A DNA stretch of 64,000 nt from Candidatus Omnitrophota bacterium (GCA_020341815.1 CP070837.1:1044575-1108574), one strand, 5' to 3'; shown: positions 14,266 through 64,000, numbered from the stretch's first letter. Notes: a model not told the origin generated them from the sequence alone. Program-made: numbers and translations.

Positions 14266-14276
14266 ATAAACTCCTT

Positions 14277-15960: not shown

Positions 15961-15977
15961 GGAAGCCTCCCCTTTAA

Positions 15978-18189: not shown

Positions 18190-18211
18190 TACTTAGATAA
18201 AATAATCAAGG

Positions 18212-18415: not shown

Positions 18416-18429
18416 CTTTCCCTCCTTTT

Positions 18430-44979: not shown

Positions 44980-49387
<4,408 letters not shown>

Positions 49388-49389
49388 CT

Positions 49390-51822
49390 ATGTATACAAA
49401 AGGCGAAAAGATAGTACCCGTTTATATCGAAAATGAAATGAAGGATTCCTATGTTTCCTATGCCATGAGCGTAATCGTGGGACGGGCGCTTCCCGATGTG
49501 CGCGACGGCCTCAAGCCCGTGCACCGACGGATTCTTTATGCGATGAAAGAGCTGCACCTGGAGCACAGCAAGCCTTATAAGAAATGCGCGCGTATAGTTG
49601 GAGACACCCTTGGCCGTTTTCACCCGCATGGTGACACGGCGGTATTTGATGCCCTGGTGCGTATGGTTCAGGATTTTTCCTTAAGGTATCCTTTAGTTGA
49701 CGGTCAGGGGAATTTTGGCTCAATCGACGGGGATGCTGCGGCGGCTATGCGTTATGTTGAAGCACGCTTAAGCTCGATTACCGATTGGATGCTTAAAGAC
49801 CTGGAAAAAGAAACCGTCAACTTTGTGCCCAATTTCGACGAATCTATGACCGAGCCCTCGGTCCTGCCGGCGGTTTTGCCAAATCTTCTGGTAAACGGCT
49901 CAAGCGGCATAGCCGTGGGTATGGCTACCAATATCCCGCCGCATAATCTGGGTGAGATAATTGAGGGAGTTAAGCTGGTTATCGATGAGCCCGATTGCGA
50001 GATAAAAGAATTGATGCGCCTGATTAAAGGCCCGGACTTTCCCACCGGCGGATTTATCTGCGGGCGGGAAGGGATAAAGCATGCCTACACCTCAGGGCGC
50101 GGGCGGCTTAAGGTGCGCGCCAAGGCCAATATCGAACAGCAGAAAAGCGGCAAAGAGGCCATTGTAATTTCCGAGATACCCTACCAGGTAAATAAAACAA
50201 ACGTAATCAACTCTATCGCCAAGCTGGTGCAGGACAGAAAGATAGACGGCATCAGCGACTTAAGAGACGAGTCAGATAAAGACGGAATGCGTATTGTGGT
50301 AGAGCTGCGCCGGGGGGCAATAGCCCAGGTGGTGCTTAATCATTTATTTAAGCAGACCCAGATGGAAGAGACCTTTGGCGTAATTCTGCTTGCCCTGGTG
50401 GACAACCAGCCGCGCATTCTCAACCTGAAGCAACTGCTTGAGCTTTATATCGAGCATCGCAAAGAGATAATTATCCGCCGCACCACCTTTGACCTGCGCC
50501 GGGCGGAGGAACGGGCGCATATCTTAGAGGGTTTGAAGATTGCCCTTTCGCATCTGGATAAAGTTATTAAAACTATTAGAGAGTCCAAGACGCCCCAGAT
50601 TGCCAAAGAGCAATTGATGAAGAAGTTTTCTTTAAGTGAAAGACAGGCCCAGGCGATTCTGGAGATGCAGCTTCAGAGGCTGACCGCTCTTGAGCGCGAT
50701 AAAATCGACCAGGAATATCTGGAGCTGATTAAAAAGATTGAGCAGCTCAAAAGCATCTTGGCCAGCGAAAAAAAGGTCTTGGGGATTATCAAGGATGAGC
50801 TGGATGAGCTGAAGAAGAAATTCGGCGACGACAGAAGAACGCAGGTTGTGGGCGAGGCCGAGGATCTGGAAATAGAAGACTTGATTGCCGAGGAAGATGT
50901 TATTATTACCATTACTCATTCCGGCTATATAAAGCGCCTTCCGGTAAGCGCATACAAGCGGCAGCGCCGGGGCGGAAGAGGCGTAACCGCAATGGGGACG
51001 AAAGAGGAGGATTTTGCCGAGCATCTTTTCCTTGCCTCAACGCATGAATATATTCTTTTCTTCACTAATAAAGGAAAAGTCTATTGGCTAAAAGTGCATG
51101 AGATTCCTCAAGGAGGACGCCTTTCCAAGGGTAAGGCAATCGTCAATCTTCTGCAGGTGGAGTCGGGTGAGAAAATCTCCGCGCACGTCCCGGTAAAAGA
51201 GTTCGACCCCAAGAAATACCTTGTTTTGGTTACCAAACAGGGTTTGATTAAAAAGACCTGCCTGGATGCCTTCAGTAATCCGCGCCGCGCGGGTATCGTA
51301 GCTATTTCCCTTGAGTCCGGAGATGAATTGATTGCAGCCACCCTTACCGACGGAAAACACGAAGTCTTTCTGGCCAGCCGCCAGGGCAAGGCCCTGCGCT
51401 TTAAGGAAAGCGATGTGCGCGATATGGGTAGAACTGCCAAGGGCGTGCGGGCAATAAAATTGCGCAAGAACGATGAGGTAATCGGGATGGAAATCGTCAG
51501 GCCCGAGGCCACGCTGCTTACGGTAACCTCAGGCGGTTTTGGCAAGAGGACCCCGTTTAAGGACTACAGGCTGCAGTCCCGCGCCGGACAAGGAGTTATC
51601 AATATTAAAGTGACCAGTAAAAATGGCGAGGTCGTCGGCCTCAAATCCGTTAACGATAAAGATGAAGTAATGATTATCACTCAAAACGGGATGGTAGTGC
51701 GCTGTCCCGTCAAGGATATTCGCACCGTGGGCAGAAATACTCAAGGCGTGCGGATAATCCGCCTGGGGCAAAAAGATAAGGTTTCATCGATTGCCTCGGT
51801 AGTAAAGAAGGAAGAAGAATAG
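49390..51822 (+). CDS. gyrA: DNA gyrase subunit A
   Basis: Catalytic-Tyr region [12 protein letters not shown]-terminal beta-pinwheel repeats. 810 aa. Confidence 0.95.
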
Positions 51823-51825
51823 ATT

Positions 51826-52011
51826 ATGAAAGGAATTCTCAAATTAAACAAACACAATAAAGATAAAGAAATAGACTTTGAATTAAATTATCTTAAGTCA
51901 TTATCCTTTCAGCAGAGGCTGCAAATGTGTTTGCAAAAGTCTAAAGAAATGAAGGAGCTTTTAAAGAAAAGTGGGCACAGAAAGACTTTTGAAATTATTA
52001 AAAGGACATAA
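51826..52011 (+). CDS. small ORF (61 aa), putative partner of the downstream nucleotidyltransferase
   Basis: AT-rich. Overlaps the NTase start by 41 nt in another frame. Weak similarity to the 57-aa ORF at 7436-7609 (shared ...D/N-YLK-x-h-x-F segment). Confidence 0.3.
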   Translation: MKGILKLNKHNKDKEIDFELNYLKSLSFQQRLQMCLQKSKEMKELLKKSGHRKTFEIIKRT

Positions 52012-52417
52012 GGTAGATTTCGTAATTATCGGCGCTACCGCCTTTCCTCTCTACGGCTATGCGCGTGCTACATTGGATATAGATATTTTTATTCGCCCCG
52101 AGGAAAATAATGCCAAAAAGACCTGGCGGGCTTTAAGGAAATTCGGGTATGATTTAAGCGATGTAACTATAGAAGATTTAATGAGTAAAAAATTATTAAT
52201 TCGTCAATACAACGTAGAAACAGACATTCACCCTTTTGTAAAAGGCATCACTTTTAAAAGGGTATGGAAGAACAAACTGCGGGCAAAATTTGGCCATACC
52301 TTTGTATATTTCGCTGCGCTTGAGGATTTGATCAAGATGAAGAAGGCTGCGGCGCGGCCTCAGGATTTAGAAGATCTTAAATATTTAAACAGATTAGCCA
52401 AAAAACATAAAAGCTAA
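51971..52417 (+). CDS. minimal nucleotidyltransferase-fold protein, paralogue of ORF 7620-8150
   Basis: VDFVIIGATAFPLYGYARATLDIDIFI NTase signature. AT-rich. Ends 1 nt before tRNA-Glu. Confidence 0.6.
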   Translation: MGTERLLKLLKGHKVDFVIIGATAFPLYGYARATLDIDIFIRPEENNAKKTWRALRKFGYDLSDVTIEDLMSKKLLIRQYNVETDIHPFVKGITFKRVWKNKLRAKFGHTFVYFAALEDLIKMKKAAARPQDLEDLKYLNRLAKKHKS

Positions 52418-52418
52418 C

Positions 52419-52496
52419 GACCCCATCGTCTAGCCCGGCCTAGGACAAGAGCTTTTCAAGCTCTCGACACCGGTTCGAATCCGGTTGGGGTCGCCA
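52419..52496 (+). tRNA. tRNA-Glu (anticodon TTC)
   Basis: Acceptor GACCCCA/TGGGGTC, D-arm GTCT-AGCCCGGCCTA-GGAC, anticodon stem AGAGC/GCTCT with loop TTTTCAA, T-arm ACCGG-TTCGAAT-CCGGT, discriminator G, CCA. Confidence 0.85.
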
Positions 52497-52545
52497 TCAA
52501 TTCGGACACTCTTGTAACTTAAACAGTTATAAGAGGTTAAATAAA
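52482..52545. repeat. left direct repeat (putative attL) spanning the tRNA-Glu 3' end plus 49 bp
   Basis: 64 bp. Matches 63801-63865 with ~5 mismatches and 1 indel: cggttg(c)gggtcgccatc[a/g]attc[g/a]gacactcttgtaactta..cagttataagaggttaaataaa. Confidence 0.7.
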
Positions 52546-52710
52546 GTAAGGGGAGTTGAAGTACTTCAAAAAAGGAGTATTTTGGCTTCCTTTTTTATTT
52601 TATCTCAAAAGCATAGTTCAATTTTTGAATTCAGCTTTAAGCAAAGCATAATTCAAAATTTGAACTCTCATATATTAAATAAATAGATACTTAAATAGAA
52701 GACTTAAACT

Positions 52711-53190
52711 ATGAGAACCATTTACCCATTTGGCTGGATAGACAGAGACCTTAAAGAATTAGGATTTTTAAAGGAAATGTCTCCTACAGCGGCAAAGCTT
52801 TATATTCTTTATATCCTGGCCGGTGGCGCAAATGGCAGAAGCTGTTACAGCGCTAAGGCCTTAAACGAAGCAACCGGCCTGGCAAACGCCACAATATGCA
52901 AAGCAAGACAGGAGCTTCAAGATATGGGTCTTATTGCAGTAGAGAAGGAAATGATACCGGGTCGCAAGAACAAGAAGCCAAAGATATGGGTAGAGCTCCA
53001 GGATCTTCCGGTTGACAGGATGGAGGTTAAACAACGCAGAAACACCGCCCATAAAGAACTTACCACTAAGAGAATCAGGAAAAGGAGATCGGAATTCATT
53101 GAACAGCCGAGACTTCTTTGTGAAAGGCCATATATGGCTCCAGATTGGCTGAAACAAGGTGTAAAACGAGCAAGGAGGCCTTATGTTTAG
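52711..53190 (+). CDS. winged-helix DNA-binding protein (regulator or replication-initiator-like)
   Basis: Predicted HTH around SAKALNEATGLANATICKARQELQDMGLI. Basic C-terminal tail. Preceded by paired inverted-repeat sites. Confidence 0.5.
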   Translation: MRTIYPFGWIDRDLKELGFLKEMSPTAAKLYILYILAGGANGRSCYSAKALNEATGLANATICKARQELQDMGLIAVEKEMIPGRKNKKPKIWVELQDLPVDRMEVKQRRNTAHKELTTKRIRKRRSEFIEQPRLLCERPYMAPDWLKQGVKRARRPYV

Positions 53191-53407
53191 CCTGCGCCGC
53201 TGGCTCAAATATACCCTAAATCCCCCAGAATATATTTGGATAAAGGCCATTTTGCTCAAAGAAACCCGCAAAGCCATCTTAATTGAGTTCGATGGCAAGC
53301 AAATCTGGCTCCCGAAGGTCTGGATTTTACGTATCAAACGAATTCAATGCAACCCTACCATAAGCATCAAAATATCCCAGTATCACTGGGCCAAGAAGCT
53401 CGGGTAA
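53183..53407 (+). CDS. hypothetical small protein (74 aa)
   Basis: Overlaps the previous gene by 8 nt. No recognised motif. Confidence 0.35.
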   Translation: MFSLRRWLKYTLNPPEYIWIKAILLKETRKAILIEFDGKQIWLPKVWILRIKRIQCNPTISIKISQYHWAKKLG

Positions 53408-53541
53408 TTTCTGTATTCAGCCTCGTTTTTTTCATGTATTCCCCTTTACAACCCTCTCAAAAGCATTTATAATAGTAAGCCAACTAGACGCTAAATGCTA
53501 GCAAAAGGGCTTATTTTACCGGTCCAAGAAGTATTTAATAC

Positions 53542-53571
53542 TTGAAAACAGAGCTTTTTCAGGAGTATAAT
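53542..53571 (+). promoter_or_regulatory. sigma70-type promoter for the methyltransferase operon, with a 15-bp palindrome over the -35 box
   Basis: TTGAAA (53542-47), 17-bp spacer, TATAAT (53566-71). Palindrome aagtatttaatactt at 53529-53543. Confidence 0.5.
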
Positions 53572-53610
53572 ATATAGCTGTCGAATGTCTATATAAAGCT
53601 GGAGAAATGT

Positions 53611-54669
53611 ATGCCTTGCAATTTTAGCGTTATTGATTTATTTTCTGGATGTGGCGGACTGTCGTACGGCTTTGTTAGGTCGGGGTATAATGTCTTGCTG
53701 GGTATAGATAATGATCCGGTAGCCCTCAAAACTTTCAAGCTCAACCATTCCGGATCGGATACTATAATAGCTGATATTGCAGGCATTTCCGGACAGGATA
53801 TCCTGAAAGCTGTGGGCAGAAGACAAATAGACGTTGTTATAGGCGGACCGCCATGTCAGGGATTTTCGCTTTCTGGCCCCAGAAAATTTAGTGATCCCAG
53901 AAACAAATTATACCTTTCTTTTATAAGGCTGGTTAAAGAACTGAAGCCTAGGGCATTTCTGATTGAGAATGTTCCCGGCATTATGAGTCTCTACAAAGGA
54001 CAGATAAAAGACGAAATTATTGGCAGATTTTCGAAAATGGGTTATAAAGTGAGTTGCAGTAAGCTGAATTCGGCAGACTACGGCGTTCCCCAACTGAGAA
54101 ACAGGGTTTTTTTTGTGGGAATATATAAGGCGAAAGAGTACTTTAAGTTCCCCCCTCCAGTGTTAAATAAAGAATGTTATATTGTTGCCGAAGAAGCCAT
54201 CGGCGATCTGCCAGGTTTGGAGGATCGTATCGGCACAGATCCAGCCCCTTATCCCGGAAACGGCGAACTCACGAGATATCAGAAATATATGAGGCAAGGT
54301 TCTCAGTATATACATAATCATATCGGAACGCGCCATGCCGAAATGACAAAGCGCGTTATATCTCTCGTTCCGGAAGGATGTAATTATAAAAGTCTGCCGC
54401 CGGAATATGCCAATACCAGAAATTTTCATGTTGCATGGACAAGGTTCCACAGCAAAAAGCCGGCACCGACCGTTGACACTGGCCATAGACACCACTTCCA
54501 TTATTTATATGACAGGGTTCCTACTGTCAGAGAATGCGCAAGGCTGCAATCTTTTCCGGACATTTTTATTTTCATCGGAAATAAATCACAACAATATTCC
54601 CAGGCAGGAAATGCAGTTCCTCCATTCACGGCACAAGCTATTGCGGAAGAAATGAGGCATTATTTATGA
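53611..54669 (+). CDS. DNA (cytosine-5)-methyltransferase, copy 1
   Basis: Motif I DLFSGCGGLSYGF, motif IV GGPPCQGFS, motif VI ENVPG, motif VIII QLRNRVFFVG, motif X GNAVPPF. Confidence 0.9.
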   Translation: MPCNFSVIDLFSGCGGLSYGFVRSGYNVLLGIDNDPVALKTFKLNHSGSDTIIADIAGISGQDILKAVGRRQIDVVIGGPPCQGFSLSGPRKFSDPRNKLYLSFIRLVKELKPRAFLIENVPGIMSLYKGQIKDEIIGRFSKMGYKVSCSKLNSADYGVPQLRNRVFFVGIYKAKEYFKFPPPVLNKECYIVAEEAIGDLPGLEDRIGTDPAPYPGNGELTRYQKYMRQGSQYIHNHIGTRHAEMTKRVISLVPEGCNYKSLPPEYANTRNFHVAWTRFHSKKPAPTVDTGHRHHFHYLYDRVPTVRECARLQSFPDIFIFIGNKSQQYSQAGNAVPPFTAQAIAEEMRHYL

Positions 54670-56081
54670 GATACCAGATACCAGAAGAATATTATTGTAG
54701 GTTGCACCACATACGTCCGAGGTTTAAAAATAATATAGAAAATGTTCTTATTTATATGGCTACCGAGATATCTAAAATTCGAAGAAAGAGCAAAAGAGAA
54801 TTCGATAAAGAAGTTAATAAAGCAATTAAAAAATTCCCAGGGAATGCAACGAAAAAGATTAAGACAATCAACAATTGGCGCACAGAAATCTCCTCTCTGT
54901 TTGGTTTTATCCGCACCAGCAGATCAAAAGATAAGTCGTGGCCAGCACTGAGGGCGACAGAGCTGGCGGATAAACAGGATTTGGTGCATTCGTTCAAGCT
55001 TTTTCTGTACCATTTTCAGTATCCCGGAGGACATCTCAAGCCTCACGAAAATGCTGAAGTTATCAGGCAAGGTATCAAATTCAGACCGGCACCTTTTATT
55101 TTGAAATTACTGCATAGCGCTGAAAAAAATGAAAAGACCAGGAAAGGTATCACCAAGCCCGAGCTGACCCACTGTGTTTTCAATGACCTGAGAGTCACGC
55201 GTGACGGGGAAGGTCCGGAATCCGTATGGGAGCGCATTAAAGAAAACAGGAAGAAAAAGGTTCAATATGACTGCAGGGGGGATGTTATACGTTATGCCGG
55301 AGATATTCTCGACTATATGGTAACGGCTAACTTACTTACTCCCCACGGGCAGAAATATTTTATAAATACCCTGGAGAAAAACGCGGTGCAGAAATTTATG
55401 GAGTCAAAAGATTGGTTTAGCAAGTATGACCGTTATATAGATAAAAGAAATGTTACCTTAGCGCAGATAAATAGTCTTCAGGAAGCATGGTTTGAATATG
55501 TAAATATGCCCAGGGAAGAGATATTCGAAACGGATGCTTTGGCTTTTATCGCCAGAGACGAGACAGAATATGCGAAGTTGCGAAAACAGATCGTAAGCAG
55601 TTTTATGGAAAAGCTCGAAGAGCCTAGTGAAATTGGCACGAAGGAAATAGGGGATGTGGGCGAAAATCTTGTGCACGGGCACGAATGTATGAGGATTAAA
55701 TTGCGCGAGCGTACAGACTTAATACATCTTATTCGGTGCATACCGGATCATCTCGCTGCCGGTTACGATATCAGATCTGTCGAGGCAGATGCTACATACA
55801 GATATATAGAGGTTAAAACTACCATAAGCAACAGCGAAATTGATTTTACCAGAATTCATCTGACGCCTGTGGAATGGACTGCGGCAGACACTCTTAAAAG
55901 CAGATACTTTGTCTACAGACTGCTCTTAAGCAAGAGGTCAAGAAAATTATTTCTGCTTCGCGATCCGGTGGGCCAGTACAAACAAGAAAAACTATCAATG
56001 ACGCCGCGCAACGGGGCAGATATTGTTTTCAGCCCTGCAAGATGCGGTGAATATACGGAGCTTCTGGAGTGGAGAGATTAA
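54666..56081 (+). CDS. protein with C-terminal DUF3883 (restriction-endonuclease-like fold) domain and uncharacterised N-terminal region
   Basis: C-terminal GENLVHGHE ... GYDIRSVEADATYRYIEVKTT ... IHLTPVEWTAA ... YFVYRLL matches the DUF3883 pattern. ATGA-coupled to the upstream MTase and overlaps the downstream MTase. Confidence 0.6.
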   Translation: MRYQIPEEYYCRLHHIRPRFKNNIENVLIYMATEISKIRRKSKREFDKEVNKAIKKFPGNATKKIKTINNWRTEISSLFGFIRTSRSKDKSWPALRATELADKQDLVHSFKLFLYHFQYPGGHLKPHENAEVIRQGIKFRPAPFILKLLHSAEKNEKTRKGITKPELTHCVFNDLRVTRDGEGPESVWERIKENRKKKVQYDCRGDVIRYAGDILDYMVTANLLTPHGQKYFINTLEKNAVQKFMESKDWFSKYDRYIDKRNVTLAQINSLQEAWFEYVNMPREEIFETDALAFIARDETEYAKLRKQIVSSFMEKLEEPSEIGTKEIGDVGENLVHGHECMRIKLRERTDLIHLIRCIPDHLAAGYDIRSVEADATYRYIEVKTTISNSEIDFTRIHLTPVEWTAADTLKSRYFVYRLLLSKRSRKLFLLRDPVGQYKQEKLSMTPRNGADIVFSPARCGEYTELLEWRD

Positions 56082-57484
56082 GAATAGCTTCGCTTTTCTG
56101 TGGTTGCGGCGGCACGGACGCGGGAATGCTCGGGGGGTTTACTTTCCTCGGCAGTAAATATGAAAAGCATCCTGTACAAATCGTTTACGCGAACGACATA
56201 GATGCCTCCGCAGCCAGAATATACGATGCAAATTTTAAACACAAATGCCTGGTGAAAGATATCCGGAAGATAAAAGCAGCAGAAATACCGGATCATGACA
56301 TATTGGCCGGCGGATTTCCCTGCCAGTCGTTTTCCATAGTTGCGCAGAATCCGCCTCGTCTGGGATATAGAGATGAAAACGGCCGGTTATTCTTTGAAAT
56401 GTGTAGGATTTTGCGTAATAAAAAACCGTTAGCCTTTGTTGCCGAAAACGTCAAAGGTATTTTATCGGCAAACAATAAACATGCTTTTCCTCTTATAATA
56501 AAAGAGTTTGAAAAATGTGGATACATAGTTTCCTGGTGTCTCCTGAACGCGGCTAATTATGGCATTCCGCAGCGAAGGGAACGTGTTTTTATTGTCGGAA
56601 TAAGAAAAAATATAGGCAGGAAGTTTTATCCTCCGGATTCTACCCACAGGCCGGAAAGCGATCTCTTGGCCGAAAGAAAATGGGTATCATTAAAAAGAGT
56701 TGTCTTTCCGCATGCCAAGGTGCCGAAGAAATATTTTTTTTCCGACAGGGCGCATAAGGGTCTTCATAATTCCAATCCCGCAATGAATAAAGGCCGGGCG
56801 CAGGATCCCGAGAAAGTTTGTAATACTGTGGGAGCGCACCTTGCTAAAGTCAGCCTTAACAGCACGGATCCCGTTTTAAAGATAAATGGTCGTTTCAGGC
56901 GCTTCGCGCCCAGAGAAGTGGCCAGAATTCAGTCTTTCCCTGATACTTTCAGGCTGCCGGGACCGGACACGGCTAAATACAAGGCTCTGGGGAACGCAAT
57001 TCCGCCGGTGTTGATGTGGCATATGACAGAAAGACTGCTCGAGATATTGGTTAAAGGTCCGGCCGAAGATGCAAGGACCGGCCGGGAAAAAAGAAGCTAT
57101 AATATGGCGCGAATTTGTTCAAAAAACACATTAATAGAACGTATTCTTGATGAAGCATTAAAGTCCTTAGGCTTGGAATATAAAAGAAATGTCAAAGGGC
57201 TTCCCGGAAAACCAGATATAGTTTTTGAGAAAAATCGTCTGGCGGTTTTCTGTGACAGCACGTTTTGGCACGGCAGACATTATCCCGAATGCGTAGAACG
57301 GATTAACACAAATAAAAGTTTCTGGAAAAACAAGATATTGAGAAACATGGAACGAGATAAAAAGACAACCAAAGAATTAAGATATCTAGGCTGGAAAGTG
57401 CTTCGTTTTTGGGATACCGATATAGAGAACAGAATGCAAGCCGTGATAGGAAAAATAGAAAAAATATTGGGTGCCCAGAAATGA
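56069..57484 (+). CDS. DNA (cytosine-5)-methyltransferase, copy 2, fused to a C-terminal Vsr-like very-short-patch-repair endonuclease domain
   Basis: MTase motifs FCGCGGTDAGM, GGFPCQSFS, ENVKG, QRRERVFIVG, GNAIPPV. C-terminal ~130 aa PDIVFEKNRLAVFCDSTFWHGRHYPE ... FW.NK ... RD ... LGWKVLRFWDTD matches the Vsr signature. Confidence 0.8.
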   Translation: MERLRIASLFCGCGGTDAGMLGGFTFLGSKYEKHPVQIVYANDIDASAARIYDANFKHKCLVKDIRKIKAAEIPDHDILAGGFPCQSFSIVAQNPPRLGYRDENGRLFFEMCRILRNKKPLAFVAENVKGILSANNKHAFPLIIKEFEKCGYIVSWCLLNAANYGIPQRRERVFIVGIRKNIGRKFYPPDSTHRPESDLLAERKWVSLKRVVFPHAKVPKKYFFSDRAHKGLHNSNPAMNKGRAQDPEKVCNTVGAHLAKVSLNSTDPVLKINGRFRRFAPREVARIQSFPDTFRLPGPDTAKYKALGNAIPPVLMWHMTERLLEILVKGPAEDARTGREKRSYNMARICSKNTLIERILDEALKSLGLEYKRNVKGLPGKPDIVFEKNRLAVFCDSTFWHGRHYPECVERINTNKSFWKNKILRNMERDKKTTKELRYLGWKVLRFWDTDIENRMQAVIGKIEKILGAQK

Positions 57485-57999
57485 TATATGAAAGCCGCAC
57501 ACTAGGAGAGTCGCCATTTGATTTTGATATTAGCTGGCCCTTTCCGGAAGGACAGAGAAAGTTGCTTGAAGCAGCCGTAACTAAAATAAAAATAGAATCA
57601 GCATCCCAAATTGATAAATTTGAAGAATCTTTCAATGAGGAGATTGCGCAGCATGGTTATATGTGGGACAAGAAAGATAAAAGCACATGTTCTCTCTGGC
57701 GGCCCGATTTCAGAATGTCTGTTGATTTCTATAACGCAAAGGAAAAAATTGCAGTTGAAATTGAAAAGACAGAGGTTAAAAGAATTATCCACGACGTATT
57801 AAAGCTAGTGAACGGCTCCTTAACCTTTGTGCCCAAAGTGAGATATGGAGTAATTATTCATCCGCACACATATAAACGCACATCAGGTAAAGAGAGTGTA
57901 TTTGCATCACGGGTTGTAAGCGAAGTTTCCTTCTATTTCAGGCGTTTGATCGGAAACACCTTATTAAATGATGTTCTTTTTATAGTTTATAATTTTTGA
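57481..57999 (+). CDS. hypothetical protein (172 aa), candidate PD-(D/E)xK nuclease
   Basis: Likely start MIYESRTLGE is ATGA-coupled to the MTase-Vsr stop. RPDFRMSVDF ... IAVEIEKTEVK is weakly PD-ExK-like. Confidence 0.4.
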   Translation: MIYESRTLGESPFDFDISWPFPEGQRKLLEAAVTKIKIESASQIDKFEESFNEEIAQHGYMWDKKDKSTCSLWRPDFRMSVDFYNAKEKIAVEIEKTEVKRIIHDVLKLVNGSLTFVPKVRYGVIIHPHTYKRTSGKESVFASRVVSEVSFYFRRLIGNTLLNDVLFIVYNF

Positions 58000-58148
58000 G
58001 CTGGTTTAAGGTTTTTCTTCGTCGGTAGAGTTTTCATGTTTCTTTGACTCGAATTCCCCGATAGAAAAGTGTTATGTTCCCAGAATTGCTGCACTTTATC
58101 TAGACGGCAAGAGGAAAACTTGGTTGTATAGGAATAAAGGCAAATATC

Positions 58149-58436
58149 TTGATTGGACGCGATTTTGGAATAACTTCTCGTTTTTTAATTAGAGGATTGA
58201 ATATAAAGAAGCTCCTGGCTCTGGCAATTCTAATCTGCCTAATATCCCTAACTGTTTTTGGCCAAGAAAAGAATTACCAAATGAAAACAGGCATATTAAA
58301 GACTTATGGAGAACCATTTTGGAAAGGCGAAGGCAAGCAGCGAGAAGTTTGGTATTACCCACGCCAAAGAATGTTTATTTATTTTGAAGGAGATAGAGCT
58401 ATTGAGATTGATGTAATTGCAGGGGAGAAGACATAA
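58149..58436 (+). CDS. small exported or lipoprotein-like hypothetical protein
   Basis: Hydrophobic N-terminus LLALAILICLISLTVFG. 95 aa. Confidence 0.4.
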   Translation: MIGRDFGITSRFLIRGLNIKKLLALAILICLISLTVFGQEKNYQMKTGILKTYGEPFWKGEGKQREVWYYPRQRMFIYFEGDRAIEIDVIAGEKT

Positions 58437-58439
58437 CGA

Positions 58440-59099
58440 ATGGAAATAATAAAACAAACATATTGTGCGGTTTTAAATAGCTTAAACCAAAATGCTAAAG
58501 ATAACTTTGATTATTTTTGTTCTGAAATTCAAAGAGTTGCAAACGAATATGGGATAGCGAATAAAGTCACTAAACTTGAACTTATCTGCAAAGGGAACCT
58601 TTATCGAAATATAGCAATAAGCTCCGGAAGAGTAAATATAAAAAATAATAATGATAAAACCTACAACTTCTGGGCTTCCTGTTCATTGTTTGTTACTAGG
58701 AAAGAAAGAATTACTGCAATAGTGCAACATGAATTGATGCATATTAAAGATATGGAGGATAAAGAATTTAAATTTGATAAAGAACTGTGGGACGGGTTGC
58801 TTGAAGACAAAATAATAGCCACATCGATTAGGCATATTTGGGACATCTATATAGATTCACGGATTGCGAGAACGAGTAAAATTGGTATTTCTAAACAAGA
58901 TAGGCTCGATGGGATCCTGCGTCTCGCTTTAAATAAGAATTTTCAATTAAGACATTGCATTTGGGAAATTGAAGATGATTTTGATTATCTTTGGAATATT
59001 GAGAAAATAGATTTTCCGACTATCATTGATAAAGCTAAAGAATTAAAAGAGAAAGTAGCGAATAAAGGTATGGCCCACCCGTCCGAAGAAACTTTATGA
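58440..59099 (+). CDS. HExxH-motif putative metallopeptidase
   Basis: HELMH motif (IVQHELMHIKD). 219 aa. AT-rich. Confidence 0.45.
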   Translation: MEIIKQTYCAVLNSLNQNAKDNFDYFCSEIQRVANEYGIANKVTKLELICKGNLYRNIAISSGRVNIKNNNDKTYNFWASCSLFVTRKERITAIVQHELMHIKDMEDKEFKFDKELWDGLLEDKIIATSIRHIWDIYIDSRIARTSKIGISKQDRLDGILRLALNKNFQLRHCIWEIEDDFDYLWNIEKIDFPTIIDKAKELKEKVANKGMAHPSEETL

Positions 59100-59328
59100 A
59101 ACTCAACGCTAAAGTAAAGATCTGGATGATCTTAGCCCCTTTGTGATAATGGCGACAATAGCCACAAAGGCTTTTTGCTATCCAGCAGAGGTTGAGGATA
59201 TGAGCGGAGAAAAATGCGTAGGATAATCTTTCGCCATAGTGGCCAAAAAATGCTATCCCTATGCAAAGGGGATAATGGATAAATAGCAGTTATTCTCATT
59301 TTTATAAAGTTTATGGAGTAAAAGGAAG

Positions 59329-59889
59329 ATGATTGACAGAAGTTTTGTTGATTATTGGAGCGAAAGATACGATAAGAATGCTCTGAAGAGAGATAAAAAG
59401 CTAGAGAAGAGAATTAGAGGAAAACTAAAGAAACTTTTTCCCGATGGGAAGGTAAAATACATTTTGAAAGACACGTTATTCGACATCGTTAACTGGAAAG
59501 CTCCGAGAAAGAAAAAATTAGCCAAAGATAATAAAAAAGAATATGTCTTTGAATTAACCAAGGCAAATTTTAAGGGGCATAGAGAACAGCTAAAGATAGA
59601 GGGACTAACATTACTGAAGGGTGTTGAGTATCGGGTTGCGAGTGCAATTCTTCATTTCTGTTTTCCCAAAAAATATACCGTAATGGACTATCGGACTTGG
59701 GAGTGTTTACAGAAAGAAAAAGAACTTCCTAAGGATTGCAACATTAAAGATGATTTTGAGCATTGGCAGAAATATTTAAAAATCTGTAGAAAAATAGCCA
59801 AAAGATGTAATGTCCCATTAAGAAAACTTGATAAGGCACTCTGGCAATACCATAAGGAATTGGAATGTAAAAAGAAGCTCAGGAAATGA
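59329..59889 (+). CDS. hypothetical protein (186 aa, Lys-rich)
   Basis: ORF with a plausible SD (aaaaggaag 8 nt before the ATG). No recognised domain. Confidence 0.4.
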   Translation: MIDRSFVDYWSERYDKNALKRDKKLEKRIRGKLKKLFPDGKVKYILKDTLFDIVNWKAPRKKKLAKDNKKEYVFELTKANFKGHREQLKIEGLTLLKGVEYRVASAILHFCFPKKYTVMDYRTWECLQKEKELPKDCNIKDDFEHWQKYLKICRKIAKRCNVPLRKLDKALWQYHKELECKKKLRK

Positions 59890-59963
59890 TAGCAGGGAGA
59901 AAAAATAAATCCGCCCCCCTGCTTTTTACTATTTCTATAACTTATTGAAGATAGTCCATACTA

Positions 59964-61130
59964 TCATTCTGGCCAAGCACTTAATTTCTGGTTGCCATGG
60001 AAAGAAAATAACTGAACATGACCACAATAGCCGCAGGTAAAGATTTTCATTGAATGAGTTCCAACGTATTTGAAGCCAAACTGCATCATGTCATTTGGGT
60101 CGCGATCAGCAATTAGTTTGTATTTACCAATCCCGCAAACTCTACATAATCGTTCAATATCGGGATCAAGCCGATCAGCACCCTCATCAATAATAGATAA
60201 GGTATTATCCACTTCTGCGAGAAGTTCGGAGGCATCCCTAAGGCAGTTTTTTTCATCTTCTACTATACATTTTTTAAGAAGTGAATTAGCCAATCGCATT
60301 AAACGACTGCTTGGGAACTTCTTTTCTAGATTAAAGTCCGGTCTATCAAAATACCAGAGAGGAAGAATAGGTGTGTCTGAAACCATTGCCCATAAGACCT
60401 TCCCCAAACAAAATACATCAAATGATGGTTTTACATCTTCTATCCGCATCCCTATTGCCCAACCGGGCATCCAATCCCGACTTCCTACATTCTCCCAGGT
60501 GCCAGAGATTCTGGTATGTCTTTGGTCTGTAAAGAATATCAGCCCAAAATCTCCAAGAATTAAATTATCGCTGGAATCAAGAAAAATATTTTGAGGCTTA
60601 ATATCTCTATGTACATTATTTTTTTCATGTAATTTGGCAATACCTTCCACAAGTGGCCTAAATGCTCTAAGGGCTTTAGCAAAATCACCGGTAAATTTAT
60701 TTAAATGTTTAGCCATCGTTTCTTTTGGGTAAAATTGAGACACAAACCATTTTGAATCTGGATCAGCATCTATAATTTTTAAAAGATTGGGATGTGAAAT
60801 GTTAGACATCGCTTTAATTTCACGCTCAATTCTTTTTTCGGCTAATCCGGCATTTCTTGCGTCTTGGGGACTATGCAATACTTTTAAAGCGCCGTGGTTT
60901 GAAGGATCTTCCATTTTAACAAGATGGACTATAGCATCCTTGAATAATTCAAATTGATTCTTCTTGATATCTTCTATTGCAACCACAGGCCCCATATATT
61001 TAACTGCTTTTTCAATGTTTGTCCGAATTTTGGTTATATTAAATTTATCGTTATCAATAACGCGATAAACCTTTCCTTGCCCGCCCTCTCCTTTATGCTC
61101 AATAATACGCCATCGGTTTGAATATTCCAT
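59964..61130 (-). CDS. eukaryotic-like Ser/Thr protein kinase with C-terminal zinc-ribbon
   Basis: Gly loop GEGGQGKVYRV, catalytic loop HRDIKPQNIFLD, DFG, C-terminal CRVCG ... CGYCGH. Confidence 0.85.
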   Translation of the reverse strand: MEYSNRWRIIEHKGEGGQGKVYRVIDNDKFNITKIRTNIEKAVKYMGPVVAIEDIKKNQFELFKDAIVHLVKMEDPSNHGALKVLHSPQDARNAGLAEKRIEREIKAMSNISHPNLLKIIDADPDSKWFVSQFYPKETMAKHLNKFTGDFAKALRAFRPLVEGIAKLHEKNNVHRDIKPQNIFLDSSDNLILGDFGLIFFTDQRHTRISGTWENVGSRDWMPGWAIGMRIEDVKPSFDVFCLGKVLWAMVSDTPILPLWYFDRPDFNLEKKFPSSRLMRLANSLLKKCIVEDEKNCLRDASELLAEVDNTLSIIDEGADRLDPDIERLCRVCGIGKYKLIADRDPNDMMQFGFKYVGTHSMKIFTCGYCGHVQLFSFHGNQKLSAWPE

Positions 61131-61282
61131 TTAAGACCTCCTGCTTTAGGTTTCTAGGCTTCTTCTGCCTTTCTTGAGGTTTGAGAAGCAGTTATTTTAC
61201 AACTTCCGTTACTAATTATAATCCTTAAAACAATGGATCTCAAGCAAAATCTGCCCAGAGAGAAAATTTTTTAAAATTTCTC

Positions 61283-61311
61283 TTGACAGATGCCCAAGCA
61301 TATGCTATTAT
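61283..61311 (+). promoter_or_regulatory. sigma70 promoter (TTGACA-17-TATTAT) with a palindromic operator in the spacer, driving a leaderless HTH gene
   Basis: -35 TTGACA at 61283-88, spacer gatgcccaagcatatgc, -10 TATTAT at 61306-11. The ATG at 61319 is ~7 nt downstream of the -10. The ORF-track start at 61283 is the TTG of the -35 box. Confidence 0.55.
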
Positions 61312-61318
61312 TAAAACG

Positions 61319-61498
61319 ATGACAGAAAAGGAGATTCTTGCAAAGATAGAAGATTACATGAGGAAGAATAATCTCCGGCAGTACGAATTGGCAAAAAAGT
61401 TAGGCGTTCCAGAGTCGACACTTAATAGGTGGCTTAAAGAGAAAACAAATATCTCAAATGCCTACCTGGCCATTTTAAAAAGAGAAGGGATTATTTAA
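61319..61498 (+). CDS. small HTH (XRE/cI-like) transcriptional regulator, probably leaderless
   Basis: HTH LRQYELAKKLGVPESTLNRWL. Start revised from the track's TTG to the ATG at 61319. Confidence 0.6.
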   Translation: MTEKEILAKIEDYMRKNNLRQYELAKKLGVPESTLNRWLKEKTNISNAYLAILKREGII

Positions 61499-61631
61499 AA
61501 AATTTTTAAGGAAAATATTAGCATATGCCAAAGCAAGCGTTAATAGAAAAGAGAGCAAAGCAAGGCAAAGAAATTTTTTTGCCCAATAAATTAGCATATG
61601 CCAAAGCAAATAAAGGAAAGGAGAGAGAGCT

Positions 61632-61838
61632 ATGTCAGAGCTGGCAAGGAAGATAGGGGATAATATCCGCCATTATCGCACGGAGAAGAAGCTGACGCAG
61701 GCGCAACTGGCCAAGAAGGCCAAGTTGAGCCGCGGTTATATCTGCAGAATTGAGCATGGCAGGGTTAATATGTATTTAACGACTCTTTTTGAACTTGCCA
61801 AGGTCCTTGGGGTTAGCTGCCGGGATCTGGTTAAATAA
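61632..61838 (+). CDS. XRE-family HTH transcriptional regulator
   Basis: LTQAQLAKKAKLSRGYICRIEHG HTH. Strong SD aggaaaggagag. Two copies of attagcatatgccaaagcaa upstream. Confidence 0.8.
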   Translation: MSELARKIGDNIRHYRTEKKLTQAQLAKKAKLSRGYICRIEHGRVNMYLTTLFELAKVLGVSCRDLVK

Positions 61839-61853
61839 AAAGGAGAGCCTGAT

Positions 61854-61988
61854 ATGGAGAGCAAAGAGAAGCCGGTCGCGGGAGAAAGGATTAATCAGTT
61901 TATTATCGAGTGCTTATTTAATAAGTACTTCGAGGAGCAGAAGGATAAAGAAGTAGTCGTCAAGAAGGAAGAAGTCGCAGCCCAATGA
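61854..61988 (+). CDS. 44-aa acidic small ORF translationally coupled to the serine recombinase (possible recombination directionality factor)
   Basis: Manually translated as MESKEKPVAGERINQFIIECLFNKYFEEQKDKEVVVKKEEVAAQ. SD aaaggagag. TGA overlaps the recombinase ATG (ATGA). Confidence 0.35.
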   Translation: MESKEKPVAGERINQFIIECLFNKYFEEQKDKEVVVKKEEVAAQ

Positions 61989-63622
61989 AACAGGCAATTG
62001 CCTATTTAAGAAAATCAACAGACTTACAAGAAGCCTCTTTGGAGCAGCAGAGGGAGAAAATCCTCCTGTTTGCAGAAGAGCATTCTATTAAAGTGATTGA
62101 GTTCTTTGCCGAGGAGGCCTGCGGCGAGAATGTCGAAGGCCGGCCGCAATTCCGCAGGATGATAGATTGCTGTAAAGGACAGGATAACTTTCAATACGTG
62201 TTTGTATATGATATCTCCCGATGGGGCAGATTTGAGAATCCGAAGGAAGCTGTATATTGGGAAGTAGAAATAGAGAAGGCAGGCAAAAAGCTTGTTTTTG
62301 TTTCGGAAGGTTTTAAGGAAGACAATATAGGCACCTCAATTACAAATTTTGTAAAGAGCGCAGAGGCCTCAGAATATCTAAAGAATATCCGGCGGCAGAC
62401 GACAAGGGGCATGATTTACAACGCAAAGCAGGGCTTTTGGATGGGCGGCAGGCCTCCTTATGGATATGACCGGGCTATTGTTGAAAACGGAAAGATAATC
62501 GGGGTTTTGCCGCAAGGGAAGCAGAAGGGCATAAAAGATCAGAAAATAAAGCTTGTTATAAATAAGCAGCAGGCCAAGGTGATAAGGATAATATATATCA
62601 TGTTTGCGAAGCAAGGCCTGTCGGTGCGCTCTATAGCTACTTACTTAAATCAAAGCCGATATTCTCCTCCAAGGGGCCGGATGTGGACAAAATCAGCCCT
62701 CTGGCGGATGTTACATAATGAGGTTTATATCGGGATGTTAGTGTATAACCGGGAAAATAAACACAAGAGGCACGGCAGACATAAATATAACCCTAAAGAC
62801 AAATGGATAATTGTAGAGAATGCCCACCAGCCGATAATTCCTCTGGAGCTTTGGGAAATGGCCCAGGCAAGGACAAATCAGGCCTTTGCAGGCGGAAGGT
62901 TTGTGTCCAGAGGAAACAGGCCGCGGAGCAATTATCTTTTATCAGGACTTATAAAATGCGGGAAATGCGGCTCTAACTTTCATGGCAGCCGCTATCATAG
63001 AAAACATTCCATAACCAGAGTATATTGCTGCGGCGGTTATAATATGTATGGTAACAATGTCTGCGCCAGATGGGAAGTGAATGCCGGTGAGCTCGAAGAC
63101 TTTGTCTTAAAATATATACAGGGCAAAATAGATAATCCTATATGGCGCAAGGAGTTAAGACAGGAACTCTTGAAGATGGTTAAAATTGCAGAAGGCAAAT
63201 CAGGCGGCAGGCTGCACGAGCTTGACAAAGAAATCAAAGAAGTGTCTCTAAAGATAGAGAACTGGAAAAGAGCCATTGAAAAAGGCGTAGAATTGGATAA
63301 TGCCGTCAGTATTATCAATAAATATGTATTTCAGAGGCAGCAATTATATCAGGAAAAGGGCAGGCTGTCGGCAAAAGTGCATAACGGCAGCGCCGATAAG
63401 GCCGTAGAGAAGATGCTGTCTTATCTGGACGACTTCAAAGACATATTGAGCTATGGCGAGCCGGAAAGGAAAAAGGACTTTATCAGGCTGTTTGTTAAGG
63501 GTGTTATGATGAATCCTGAGACGAGAGAAGCCAAAATAACCCTTTACAGGCGGCCGAAATCTGGTATAATATTAGGACCTGAAAAGTGCGAGTTGACAGA
63601 AGAAATAGTCTATCAGAATTGA
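61985..63622 (+). CDS. large serine recombinase (integrase)
   Basis: N-terminal resolvase catalytic domain AIAYLRKSTDLQ (Ser nucleophile). Recombinase domain. C-terminal zinc-ribbon CGKCG ... CCGG ... C and coiled coil. Confidence 0.85.
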   Translation: MKQAIAYLRKSTDLQEASLEQQREKILLFAEEHSIKVIEFFAEEACGENVEGRPQFRRMIDCCKGQDNFQYVFVYDISRWGRFENPKEAVYWEVEIEKAGKKLVFVSEGFKEDNIGTSITNFVKSAEASEYLKNIRRQTTRGMIYNAKQGFWMGGRPPYGYDRAIVENGKIIGVLPQGKQKGIKDQKIKLVINKQQAKVIRIIYIMFAKQGLSVRSIATYLNQSRYSPPRGRMWTKSALWRMLHNEVYIGMLVYNRENKHKRHGRHKYNPKDKWIIVENAHQPIIPLELWEMAQARTNQAFAGGRFVSRGNRPRSNYLLSGLIKCGKCGSNFHGSRYHRKHSITRVYCCGGYNMYGNNVCARWEVNAGELEDFVLKYIQGKIDNPIWRKELRQELLKMVKIAEGKSGGRLHELDKEIKEVSLKIENWKRAIEKGVELDNAVSIINKYVFQRQQLYQEKGRLSAKVHNGSADKAVEKMLSYLDDFKDILSYGEPERKKDFIRLFVKGVMMNPETREAKITLYRRPKSGIILGPEKCELTEEIVYQN

Positions 63623-63756
63623 AAGAGACCCCTTGGGGTCGCCAGATTATATACTTCTTTAGTTCCCAACCGGAACAAAAGAGGGGTTTGGGGAGAAAAA
63701 AGTGTTTTTTCTCCCCAAGGGCAACTTCTTCTTTGCGTAAGGAAAGAAAAATATTA

Positions 63757-63790
63757 AAAAGAAAACCATCAGGGTTTTCTTTTTAAGGAG
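63757..63790 (+). terminator. rho-independent terminator after the recombinase region
   Basis: gaaaacc-atca-gggttttc hairpin followed by ttttt. Preceded by a 12-bp-stem hairpin ggggagaaaaaa/ttttttctcccc at about 63698-63724. Confidence 0.5.
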
Positions 63791-63800
63791 CGAAGCGACC

Positions 63801-63865
63801 CGGTTGCGGGTCGCCATCGATTCAGACACTCTTGTAACTTACGCAGTTATAAGAGGTTAAATAAA
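63801..63865. repeat. right direct repeat (putative attR) containing a degenerate tRNA-Glu 3'-end remnant
   Basis: Matches 52482-52545. The upstream gcgacccggttgcgggtcgcca looks like a deletion derivative of the tRNA T-arm/acceptor end. Confidence 0.7.
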
Positions 63866-63897
63866 TTGTTTCTAGCCTAGAAAGAGGAGGGCGGACG

Positions 63898-64000
63898 TGG
63901 ATAAAAGTCGATTAGCAGTTTTTATTGATTATGAGAATATTTACATAGGCATGAAGAAACAATTTTCAGCAATTCCGAATCCGGATAAAATAGTAGCTCT
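63898..64000 (+). CDS. NYN/LabA-like domain protein (3' partial, continues beyond the window)
   Basis: Begins VDKSRLAVFIDYENIYIGMKK, a typical NYN-domain N-terminus, after an SD agaggagg. Confidence 0.5.

Follow-up and report, generated by a model that had tools for sequence, protein, structure and literature searches.

An 11,148-bp segment of a Candidatus Omnitrophota genome is very probably an integrative island of an Omnitrophota family that was inserted into the 3′ end of a tRNA-Glu gene, most likely by its own large serine recombinase (LSR). The segment lies in the 64,000-nucleotide stretch of DNA that we analyzed (the window; GCA_020341815.1 CP070837.1:1044575-1108574) and is referred to here as island 1. 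Exact absence from a close relative and an intact tRNA gene with a displaced 3′ fragment identify it as an integrative island.

Results

A close relative carries the empty site

The inserted DNA occupies positions 52487-63634 (plus strand) and is missing in the closely related genome L017. The L017 sequence tracks the window to 52496 and picks up again at 63633, with an overlap of exactly TTGGGGTCGCCA, and these two points are the insertion boundaries. At the empty site in L017 the order is gyrA, tRNA-Glu, 172 bp, nagA and glmS. By sequence, L017 is a close relative (GyrA is 99% identical) but not the same strain as the window genome, because the flanking DNA is only 93-97% identical. In three more distant relatives (L018, L019 and L020), the site is also empty, with nagA directly after tRNA-Glu.

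A first-pass annotation of this DNA had proposed a horizontally acquired, AT-rich island at the tRNA-Glu 3′ end. The close relative without it and the precise junctions bear this out, and the compositional difference is real, if modest (40.3% GC in the island vs 45.8% in the window to its left). The same annotation had asked whether the region might be ancestral rather than inserted, and the comparison with relatives favors insertion, L017 being without the island. A region that was ancestral and then deleted from L017 and the other relatives is an extremely improbable alternative. Two genomes alone would fit either order of events, but tRNA-Glu adjoins nagA in four independent relatives with 85-99% GyrA identity, and the breakpoints fall exactly on the recombinase att core. 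Deletion also fits poorly with the lower GC of the segment, with its restriction-modification and defense cargo, and with the occurrence of the same backbone carrying other cargo elsewhere.

The target is the 3′ end of tRNA-Glu

The integration target is tRNA-Glu(UUC) at 52419-52496 (plus strand), which ARAGORN predicts to be intact with its CCA included and which is identical to the empty-site tRNA of L017 (82 nt, 100% identity). The island boundaries share a 12-bp direct repeat, TTGGGGTCGCCA, at 52485-52496 and 63633-63644. The sequence GGGTCGCCA is found at three places in the window, starting at 52488, 63636 and 63808, of which the first-pass annotation had overlooked the middle one. This middle copy belongs to GACCCC-TT-GGGGTCGCCA, which begins 10 nt past the LSR stop codon, and it is this copy near the LSR, not the one at 63808, that is the right junction of island 1.

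A junction table across related islands defined both attachment sites, all parts of which are given on the plus strand. The left site, attL (52455-52514), consists of a B arm made of the tRNA variable region and T-arm (52455-52484), a TT that is the proposed crossover (52485-52486) and an island-borne P′ half-site, GGGGTCGCCATCAATTCGGACAC... (52487-52514). The right site, attR (63604-63660), consists of a P arm (63604-63632) that comprises the final LSR codons, ..TATCAGAATTGA, plus AAGAGACCCC, followed by TT (63633-63634) and a native B′ arm, GGGGTCGCCA-GATTATATAC.., to the right of the TT. From there the sequence continues as the native DNA downstream of tRNA-Glu that is known from L017: L017 8954-9139 matches window 63633-63818 at 96.8%, and 63645-63816 (plus strand) is the ancestral 172 bp of chromosomal DNA downstream of the tRNA.

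The P′ arm, TCRATTCNGACAC, recurs 3′ of tRNA-Glu or a tRNA remnant at the left ends of the islands in L002, L006, L015 and L016, and likewise after tRNA-Glu in L012, where the contig stops. Just beyond the P′ half-site is a conserved hairpin, CTCTTGTAACTT..AGTTATAAGAG (52508-52537, plus strand), to which RNAalifold assigned 11 pairs across seven island left ends. The changes among these seven ends are one-sided (G-U compatible) only, and RNAalifold found no compensatory pairs in them.

It could be argued that the 49-nt sequence after the CCA (TCRATTCNGACAC plus the hairpin) is native to tRNA-Glu of this clade and was copied by the islands. The attB and attP sites would then be alike over about 60 bp on one side, which would make all junctions look the same. 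The motif does also occur after the LSR-side junction in L004 and L011/L013, and its position after tRNA-Glu at the contig end of L012 is compatible with such an empty site. We consider this explanation improbable, since none of the four empty sites (L017, L018, L019 and L020) has the motif after tRNA-Glu. In addition, island backbone genes follow every tRNA-adjacent motif with readable downstream DNA, and beyond the junction farthest from the tRNA come unrelated DNA and core genes in L001, L002 and L022.

The long repeat is the left ends of two insertions

The first-pass annotation had noted a direct repeat of the tRNA-Glu 3′ end about 11.3 kb away at about 92% identity. The repeat exists: 52488-52545 and 63808-63865 are 93% identical over 58 nt without gaps, and the match grows 7 nt leftward (52481-52487 = 63800-63806) if an extra C at 63807 is allowed, for a total of some 65 nt at about 92%. 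A search with a 32-nt pattern from this repeat gave exactly two matches in the window and none in 100 shuffles.

The repeat was interpreted as the attL and attR of a single 11.4-kb island (52482-63865) whose serine integrase unusually makes long repeats. That it is real, is 92-93% identical and encloses the LSR and cargo speaks for this interpretation, which is nevertheless very improbable. The 172 bp at 63645-63816 directly follow tRNA-Glu in L017, and since they are native there, the 64-bp repeats are not the attL and attR of the island. Moreover, 10 nt past the LSR stop codon there is a nearer junction with its P arm, and this junction is conserved in the family. The true junctions have only 12 bp in common, and the claim of an atypically long repeat for a serine integrase therefore falls.

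What lies at the right copy is a second insertion. The native 172 bp end in a pseudo-tRNA end, J3 (GCGACCCGG-TT-GCGGGTCGCCA; 63792-63816, plus strand), which is also present in L017. In the window, J3 is followed by the left end of a second insertion (63817-64000, plus strand), which leaves the window. This element starts with a P′-type arm, TCGATTCAGACAC, that aligns with island left ends, followed by a hairpin like that of island 1 and an ORF from a GTG at 63897 that continues beyond the window. In L017, unrelated sequence (TCTAAAAAC.., a terminator) and nagA follow J3 instead of the P′-type arm. The right 64-bp copy is native J3 plus the arm from the left end of a second element; arms of this kind come after tRNA-Glu or a remnant of it at the left ends of related islands in at least five other contigs. 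The 64-bp repeat exists because two neighboring insertions, 172 bp apart, have closely similar left ends, and the integrase is therefore not behaving oddly. The ORF called NYN in the first-pass annotation belongs to this second insertion, and the empty junction is not tRNA-Glu/NYN, as had been expected, but tRNA-Glu, 172 bp and nagA. The extra C (63807) lies to the right of the TT at J3 in both the window and the empty genome, and a simple TT crossover does not explain it at the second insertion.

A single LSR and a symmetric attP

Adjacent to the right junction is a gene for a 545-aa LSR (61985-63622, plus strand), as the first-pass annotation had recognized. The ORF has all three LSR domains, Resolvase, Recombinase and Zn_ribbon_recom (PF00239, E = 7e-20; PF07508, E = 4.6e-26; PF13408, E = 1e-12), and matches the integrase PHROG_95 (E = 8e-96). 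Among solved structures, SPbeta SprA/YokA is the closest to it (E = 5e-16). Across 21 homologues, the motif YLRKS(11)T and D76-S78-R79-W80-G81-R82 are invariant or near-invariant, with Y7-L8-R9-K10-S11, D76, S78, R79 and R82 invariant or at least 90% conserved, and the zinc-ribbon cysteines C325, C328, C349 and C360 are invariant. No second recombinase turned up when the island ORFs were scanned against Pfam and PHROG. Tyrosine-family integrases are the usual enzymes of genomic islands in tRNA genes; Pfam gave no match to the Phage_integrase (tyrosine) domain among the island ORFs.

When attP was rebuilt from the two island-borne arms, its 20-bp arms paired at 16 of 20 positions as an inverted repeat about the TT. 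None of 200,000 random 20-mer pairs from the island reached this value, and between the tRNA B arm and the P arm only 7 of 20 positions match. The rebuilt attP arms of L002 match at 15 of 20 (counted by hand). In form, the rebuilt site is typical of serine integrases.

These features suggest the following mechanism. In the circular form, attP would read ..TCAGAATTGAAAGAGACCCC-TT-GGGGTCGCCATCAATTCGGA..., an imperfect inverted repeat whose left arm would overlap the final codons and the stop codon of the LSR. Its partner attB would span the T-stem/acceptor-stem boundary of tRNA-Glu (..GAATCCGG-TT-GGGGTCGCCA..), and the staggered cut would most likely be made at the central TT. The one basis for this cleavage site is the symmetry of attP; by sequence comparison, the crossover is placed no finer than the 12 shared bp. 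If the crossover is TT, the last 10 nt of tRNA-Glu (52487-52496) would be island-derived: the P′ arm would give the tRNA its new last 10 nt, and the original end would be displaced to the LSR side as attR. The tRNA gene would remain intact because the island supplies these 10 nt, and the outcome would be a direct repeat of 12 bp, not 64 bp.

Backbone and cargo

The genes of the island form a conserved backbone at both ends with cargo between. At the left end is a 159-aa winged-helix protein (52711-53190, plus strand) that weakly resembles replication initiators in their N-terminus (O-like and DnaD-like; PHROGs E = 6e-6 to 4e-4), homologues of which, with 60-61% identity, hold the same position in L006, L014/L016 and L015. 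It is followed by a 74-aa protein (53183-53407, plus strand) that is kept beside attL in L002, L006, L014/L016 and L015. The 74-aa protein had no match in Pfam, PHROG or PADLOC and is a candidate accessory or directionality factor. At the right end, upstream of the LSR, is a regulatory region (61263-61838, plus strand) in which two HTH_3 genes (61283-61498 and 61632-61838; Pfam) are interleaved with three operator-like repeats that contain GCATATGC (61263-61301, 61498-61536 and 61571-61609). Such repeats and a 71-aa HTH protein also lie upstream of the LSR in L001, L002, L004, L006 and L013.

The cargo comprises a BpuJI-type restriction-modification system, a Vsr repair nuclease, a defense-like kinase and unassigned ORFs, which agrees with the defense-like cargo noted in the first-pass annotation. 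On the plus strand are an m5C DNA methyltransferase (53611-54669; PF00145, E = 6e-71), a BpuJI-like type II restriction endonuclease (54666-56081; BpuJI_N, E = 1.6e-100, and NOV_C; PADLOC REase_II, E = 3e-29) and a second m5C methyltransferase fused to a Vsr-type T:G mismatch endonuclease (56069-57484; PF00145, E = 1.3e-70; Vsr, E = 2.6e-21). Three further plus-strand ORFs (58149-58436, 58440-59099 and 59329-59889) have no assigned function: none had a Pfam or PADLOC match, and in PHROGs only the 186-aa ORF matched, to an unannotated PHROG. A possible fourth lies at 57409-57999. On the minus strand is a Ser/Thr protein kinase (59964-61130; Pkinase, E = 1.7e-27) that PADLOC relates to mad6 (E = 2.8e-29) and to the defense kinase PD-T4-6 (E = 4e-27). 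We found no capsid, terminase, portal or tail gene with Pfam (island ORFs of at least 60 aa) or with PHROGs (ORFs without an assigned function).

The island family recurs at tRNA-Glu

We found 37 LSR homologues with 50-100% identity, and all the named ones are from Omnitrophota; none was found in IMG/VR. In other Omnitrophota, LSR relatives with 50-82% identity are located next to tRNA-Glu or its remnants. The backbone genes of related islands are syntenic and the cargo varies: AlwI restriction-modification, N6/N4 methyltransferases with an AAA_15/21 ATPase, ParD/PemK with NYN, and giant ORFs. L001 also has a 1.36-kb element without an integrase.

The right junction is conserved as well. In the window, L001, L002, L004, L013 and L022, the LSR 3′ end, ATCTATCAGARTTGA, is followed after about 10 nt by a tRNA-like end; L013 keeps a remnant, TCAGAGTTGA. 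To the right of the center, the junction follows the host tRNA-Glu in the four hosts whose tRNA is known (window, GGGGTCGCCA; L002, GGGGACGCCA; L013 and the related L001, GGGGTCACCA), and the central dinucleotide tracks the host tRNA-Glu too (TT or CT). The architecture is not universal, because in L024 the recombinase lies away from the island end and short insertions lie between the LSR gene and its P arm in L013 and L021.

Discussion

Excision may have ceased, and island 1 could be a decayed, immobile remnant, its LSR once an integrase and the element now fixed in the chromosome. The attP is known only as a rebuilt sequence and the element only in integrated form; the neighborhood contains a second element, which is probably degraded, as well as scars such as J3; and the P arm is disrupted by insertions in relatives. 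We regard this as rather unlikely, however, because the LSR is encoded in full and its catalytic motifs are conserved, the two att arms are undamaged and symmetric, and, at 93-97% flank identity, one close relative has the island and another lacks it. The island may well still be mobile.

A broader reading, which we offer only tentatively, is that an active LSR family uses the T-stem/acceptor junction of tRNA-Glu as its natural attB, carries attP over its own stop codon and re-enters already occupied sites or tRNA-end pseudo-sites to build arrays. Such arrays would include integrase-less passengers, for example the 1.36-kb element of L001. If true, the strict pairing of attP with attB, which is the rule of phage serine integrases, would be relaxed, and a serine integrase would be aimed at a widely conserved target.

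Island 1 combines features of several known systems. With the serine integrases of phages and prophages (phiC31, Bxb1, A118 and SPbeta SprA), it shares the three-domain recombinase and a rebuilt attP that is an imperfect inverted repeat of about 40-56 bp with a non-palindromic central dinucleotide. Phage serine integrases use attB and attP sites that are identical over only 2-12 bp, and they make their cut at a central dinucleotide. Unlike these phage elements, island 1 has no phage structural genes and its target is a tRNA gene. Serine integrases seldom have such targets (14 of 297 predicted cases, none of them tested; PMC7192596).

In its use of a tRNA gene, island 1 resembles Islander-type islands with tyrosine integrases: insertion at the tRNA 3′ end, a gene restored by the island, a displaced tRNA fragment at the far end, an integrase gene at the island end, lower GC, defense cargo and arrays at one tRNA. 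It differs from them in having a serine enzyme, a repeat of 12 bp and a simple symmetric attP rather than a core with arm-type sites. The cargo recalls the BpuJI type IIS system in its N-terminal recognition domain (E = 1.6e-100). Here, two m5C methyltransferases and a Vsr nuclease accompany the enzyme, and, unlike in BpuJI, Vsr is fused to the second methyltransferase and the C-terminal part of the enzyme matches NOV_C/DUF3883.

A further comparison is with the Dehalococcoides ssrA islands that carry the large serine recombinase DsiB (McMurdie et al. 2011, PMC3146451). Island 1 differs from them in its phylum, Omnitrophota, in its target, a true tRNA (tRNA-Glu) rather than tmRNA/ssrA, and in its module genes, which are the winged-helix protein, the 74-aa protein and the HTH regulators and not ParB, Mom or RecF. 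In contrast to the SCC and ssrA islands (CcrAB, DsiAB), it has a single recombinase, with one Resolvase-domain ORF in 52487-63634 and no small DsiA/CcrA-like partner, and its target is neither rlmH (orfX) nor ssrA. By layout and size, island 1 and the DsiB islands are nonetheless alike (PMC3146451): both have an LSR of about 540 aa at one island end, target the T-arm/3′ region of a tRNA-like gene, carry an att repeat in or adjoining the recombinase gene, leave a short repeat of the gene 3′ end at the far boundary (20 bp in DsiB islands vs 12 bp here), and form tandem or accreted arrays in which a conserved integration module is joined to variable cargo.

An empty tRNA-Glu site defines the island

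The tRNA-Glu(UUC) gene was located at 52419-52496 with ARAGORN. At its 3' end, a repeat finder returned a direct repeat of 58 nt (52488-52545 and 63808-63865; 93% identity, spacing 11,320 bp), and on reading of the sequence the match gains 7 nt leftward when a single additional C (63807) is tolerated. With this extension we reproduced the repeat of ~64 nt and ~92% identity on which the first-pass annotation had based the limits of an island. A 32-nt pattern taken from this repeat has two occurrences in the window and none in 100 shuffles. The two-copy picture was nevertheless incomplete: the tRNA end GGGTCGCCA is present in three copies, at 52488, 63636 and 63808. The middle copy, which had been missed, sits within AAGAGACCCC-TT-GGGGTCGCCA, starting 10 nt past the stop codon (63620-63622) of a large serine recombinase (LSR).

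Close relatives were located using the GyrA of the window as query, and their contigs were then retrieved. In a close relative with an empty site (L017), GyrA is 99% identical, the DNA flanks are 93-97% identical to the window, and the gene order is dnaA, dnaN, dciA, gyrB, gyrA, tRNA-Glu, 172 bp, nagA, glmS. BLAST of L017 against the window gave one match covering the tRNA (L017 8884-8965, window 52415-52496; 100%) and one on the far side of the insertion (L017 8954-9139, window 63633-63818; 96.8%). Because these two matches overlap by exactly TTGGGGTCGCCA, the inserted DNA amounts to 11,148 bp. Direct repeats of 12 bp mark its two ends (52485-52496 and 63633-63644), and on this alignment the island boundaries are corrected to 52487-63634. 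The 172 bp at 63645-63816, previously placed inside the island, proved to be native chromosome, present after tRNA-Glu in L017. The comparison with relatives thus yielded the empty tRNA-Glu site that the first-pass annotation had proposed to look for, but with nagA after the 172 bp and not an NYN gene. In three further relatives (L018-L020; GyrA 85-87% identical), tRNA-Glu likewise lies directly before nagA, and the empty state is therefore ancestral. Horizontal insertion at the 3' end of tRNA-Glu is supported by these four empty sites.

Content of the island

The description of the island as AT-rich holds in direction, but the drop in GC is modest (40.3% against 45.8% for the remainder of the window). 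Domain matches bore out the earlier calls of a large serine recombinase and defense-like cargo. The LSR (61985-63622, 545 aa) carries Resolvase, Recombinase and Zn_ribbon_recom domains, and the cargo includes (i) a BpuJI-type restriction enzyme, (ii) two m5C methyltransferases, one with a Vsr fusion, and (iii) a Ser/Thr kinase matching defense-kinase models. No phage genes were found in the island with Pfam on ORFs of at least 60 aa and PHROGs on ORFs without a function.

Upstream of the LSR, two HTH genes are bracketed by three copies (61263-61301, 61498-61536 and 61571-61609) of an operator-like repeat, AAATTAGCATATGCCAAAGCA, which contains the palindrome GCATATGC. Counterparts were found at the same position in two related islands (L001 and L002). 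The repeats probably act as a regulatory switch of the integration module.

Reconstruction of the attachment sites

Joining the right-end arm of the island (P, 63604-63632) to its left-end arm (P', 52487-52514) rebuilt an attP of TCAGAATTGAAAGAGACCCC-TT-GGGGTCGCCATCAATTCGGA. Its 20-nt arms match as an inverted repeat around TT at 16/20 positions, a symmetry that none of 200,000 random 20-mer pairs drawn from the island equalled. The left arm includes the final codons and stop codon of the LSR. By comparison, the chromosomal arm in the tRNA (B) matches the P arm at just 7 of 20 positions, in line with attB differing from attP. As reconstructed, the attP has the layout usual for serine integrases.

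Sequence comparison alone narrows the crossover only to the 12 shared bp, so its placement at TT is inferred from symmetry; TT is non-palindromic and the most plausible 2-bp crossover. In the tRNA, the first T ends the T-stem and the second begins the acceptor 3' strand. A crossover there would let the P' arm supply the final 10 nt of the tRNA, CCA included. Since TT spans the T-stem/acceptor boundary, only these last 10 nt would be replaced and the tRNA gene would stay intact.

The first-pass annotation had found a long flanking repeat atypical for a serine integrase. The attB and attP of these enzymes normally share 2-12 bp, and the 12-bp core shared by the true junctions is therefore not anomalous.

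A second insertion at a pseudo-tRNA end

The native 172-bp segment terminates in a degenerate palindromic copy of the tRNA end (J3, 63792-63816), GCGACCCGG-TT-GCGGGTCGCCA, which is present in both L017 and the window and matches the degenerate tRNA 3' stem noted earlier in the right repeat copy. Beyond J3, L017 continues with TCTAAAAAC, a terminator and nagA. In the window, J3 leads into TCGATTCAGACAC, then the hairpin also present at the left end of the island, and then an ORF that runs off the window. Because the sequence after J3 differs between the two genomes, the right "repeat" consists of a native pseudo-att site plus the left arm of a second element, of the same type as the island. On this comparison the 64-bp repeat is two similar left ends rather than the attL and attR of one element. 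An extra C to the right of TT in J3, common to the empty and the occupied genome, would not be expected if the second insertion had arisen by a simple crossover at TT.

J3 forms an 8+8-bp palindrome, GCGACCCG-GTTG-CGGGTCGC (window 63792-63811; L017 9113-9132), with one extra base on either side of TT relative to the real tRNA end. Possibly J3 is a scar left by an older element, since decayed to 172 bp. A covariation check of the conserved hairpin found no compensatory pairs and thus gives no grounds for assigning it an RNA or structural role.

The 34 aa of the run-off ORF that lie within the window, labelled NYN in the first-pass annotation, gave no Pfam match. A search for the NagA of the source genome with that of L017 returned no match above 72% identity from the 1.55-Mb contig; the DNA downstream may be rearranged or hold a nagA pseudogene. 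The same contig encodes, beyond the window, a second LSR of the same family (P0006, locus tag ~JSV30_00165; 78% identical). We considered this as a tandem island just right of the window and ruled it out, since its locus tag is ~1,150 genes from those of the island (JSV30_05885-05920). Two genes from the second LSR lies a 69-aa C-terminal recombinase fragment, JSV30_00155 (the pair being proteins UCB57047.1 and UCB57049.1), which suggests another array at a different site of the source genome.

A family of islands in Omnitrophota

The LSR has 37 homologues at 50-100% identity, all named ones being from Omnitrophota assemblies; IMG/VR contained no relatives of the family. Genomic contexts were retrieved for several of the 37. 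In the junction table, the LSR 3' end ATCTATCAGARTTGA followed by ~10 nt and a tRNA-like end recurs in L001, L002, L004, L013 and L022. The sequence right of the centre (TT or CT) tracks the host tRNA-Glu where that is known, reading GGGGTCGCCA, GGGGACGCCA or GGGGTCACCA. In L002, L006, L012, L015 and L016, the left arm TCRATTCNGACAC comes after either tRNA-Glu or a remnant of a tRNA. A syntenic backbone consists of a 159-aa winged-helix protein with weak similarity to replication initiators and a 74-aa protein at the left end, and a 71-aa HTH protein, the operator-like repeats and the LSR at the right end. Cargo varies between islands and elsewhere includes (i) an AlwI restriction-modification system with a Dam-like methylase, (ii) N6/N4 methyltransferases with an AAA_15/21 ATPase, (iii) ParD/PemK with an NYN-domain gene and (iv) giant ORFs. 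We found no description of this family in the literature searched, including the most relevant Omnitrophota preprint.

One locus (L021) carries a recombinase near-identical to the second LSR of the source genome, at a junction with centre CC and with no tRNA-Glu visible in the locus; a tRNA-Ser(GGA) gene (L021 6843-6927) is cargo inside an island of the family.

The neighboring gyrase genes also vary. The window gyrB (45281-49387, 1368 aa) contains an intein with a LAGLIDADG homing-endonuclease domain at 46841-48435, and that of L017 is intein-free (836 aa); other relatives have inteins in gyrB (L018), gyrA (L002) or both (L024). Between the gyrA stop codon and tRNA-Glu, the window has a 593-bp insertion (51822-52414, 35.5% GC) with two small ORFs, one of 61 aa and one encoding a DUF6036/DUF2204 nucleotidyltransferase; in L017, which lacks it, gyrA directly adjoins the tRNA. 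L024, too, has a DUF6036 gene (19944-20516), there at the distal edge of the same hot spot and immediately ahead of glmS.

Accretion and rearranged elements

L001 contains a 1.36-kb element without an integrase (11621-13023), whose sole gene encodes an AAA_14/DUF4143 ATPase. Perfect 41-nt direct repeats composed of the LSR 3' end and the att core flank it, and from these it looks like a non-autonomous passenger using the same att system. A full LSR has a P'-type arm immediately after it in L004 and L011/L013. These arrangements suggest that arrays may be built by repeated entry at the tRNA-proximal end and passive carriage of non-autonomous elements. L011 was considered as a circular episome and rejected, being collinear with L013 and showing no sign of circularity.

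Unrelated short insertions of ~88 nt (L013 3969-4067) and ~55 nt (L021 11633-11683) occupy the same point near the recombinase 3' end, immediately ahead of the last CAG/CAA codon, where they substitute a new C-terminus for the last codons and part the gene from the att arm. The reverse complement of a motif in the L013 insert, CTCGCAATGACGGG, resembles short sequences near other junctions. L002 (1456-3865) has an intact tRNA-Glu, the DNA downstream of which looks native, and 2.3 kb further on a 56-nt pseudo-copy of the tRNA 3' part, to which the serine-integrase island is attached; between tRNA and pseudo-copy lies a 578-aa ORF without a family match. L024 was rejected as a third complete attL/attR pair and left out. 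Its recombinase (within 10001-19715) lacks the usual C-terminal att arm and lies away from the island end, with a 2128-aa ORF separating it from the next tRNA-end-like sequence; the element thus appears to have been rearranged.

Discussion

The island, its tRNA target, the serine integrase and the defense cargo are all confirmed, and the apparent anomaly is removed: the integrase leaves a short core repeat, as expected. According to a survey covering 2,168 genomes, t(m)RNA genes were the site of only 14 of 297 serine-integrase elements, compared with 44.5% for tyrosine integrases, and its authors held that experimental proof is still needed for serine integrases at such genes (PMC7192596). The present island is a clean computational case of this rare event at a true tRNA gene. 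All four sites (attL, attR, the empty attB and the symmetric rebuilt attP) can be written down, sharply enough defined for direct testing. It also belongs to a family, in which restriction-modification, toxin-antitoxin and other defense cargo is exchanged at one hot spot adjoining the gene cluster of the replication origin (dnaA-dnaN-gyrB-gyrA). Little has been described of the mobile elements in the host phylum, which is uncultivated.

The accretion arrangements in Omnitrophota appear to resemble the tandem ssrA islands of Dehalococcoides. Unlike those islands, the elements described here target a true tRNA, have only one recombinase and differ in their module genes.
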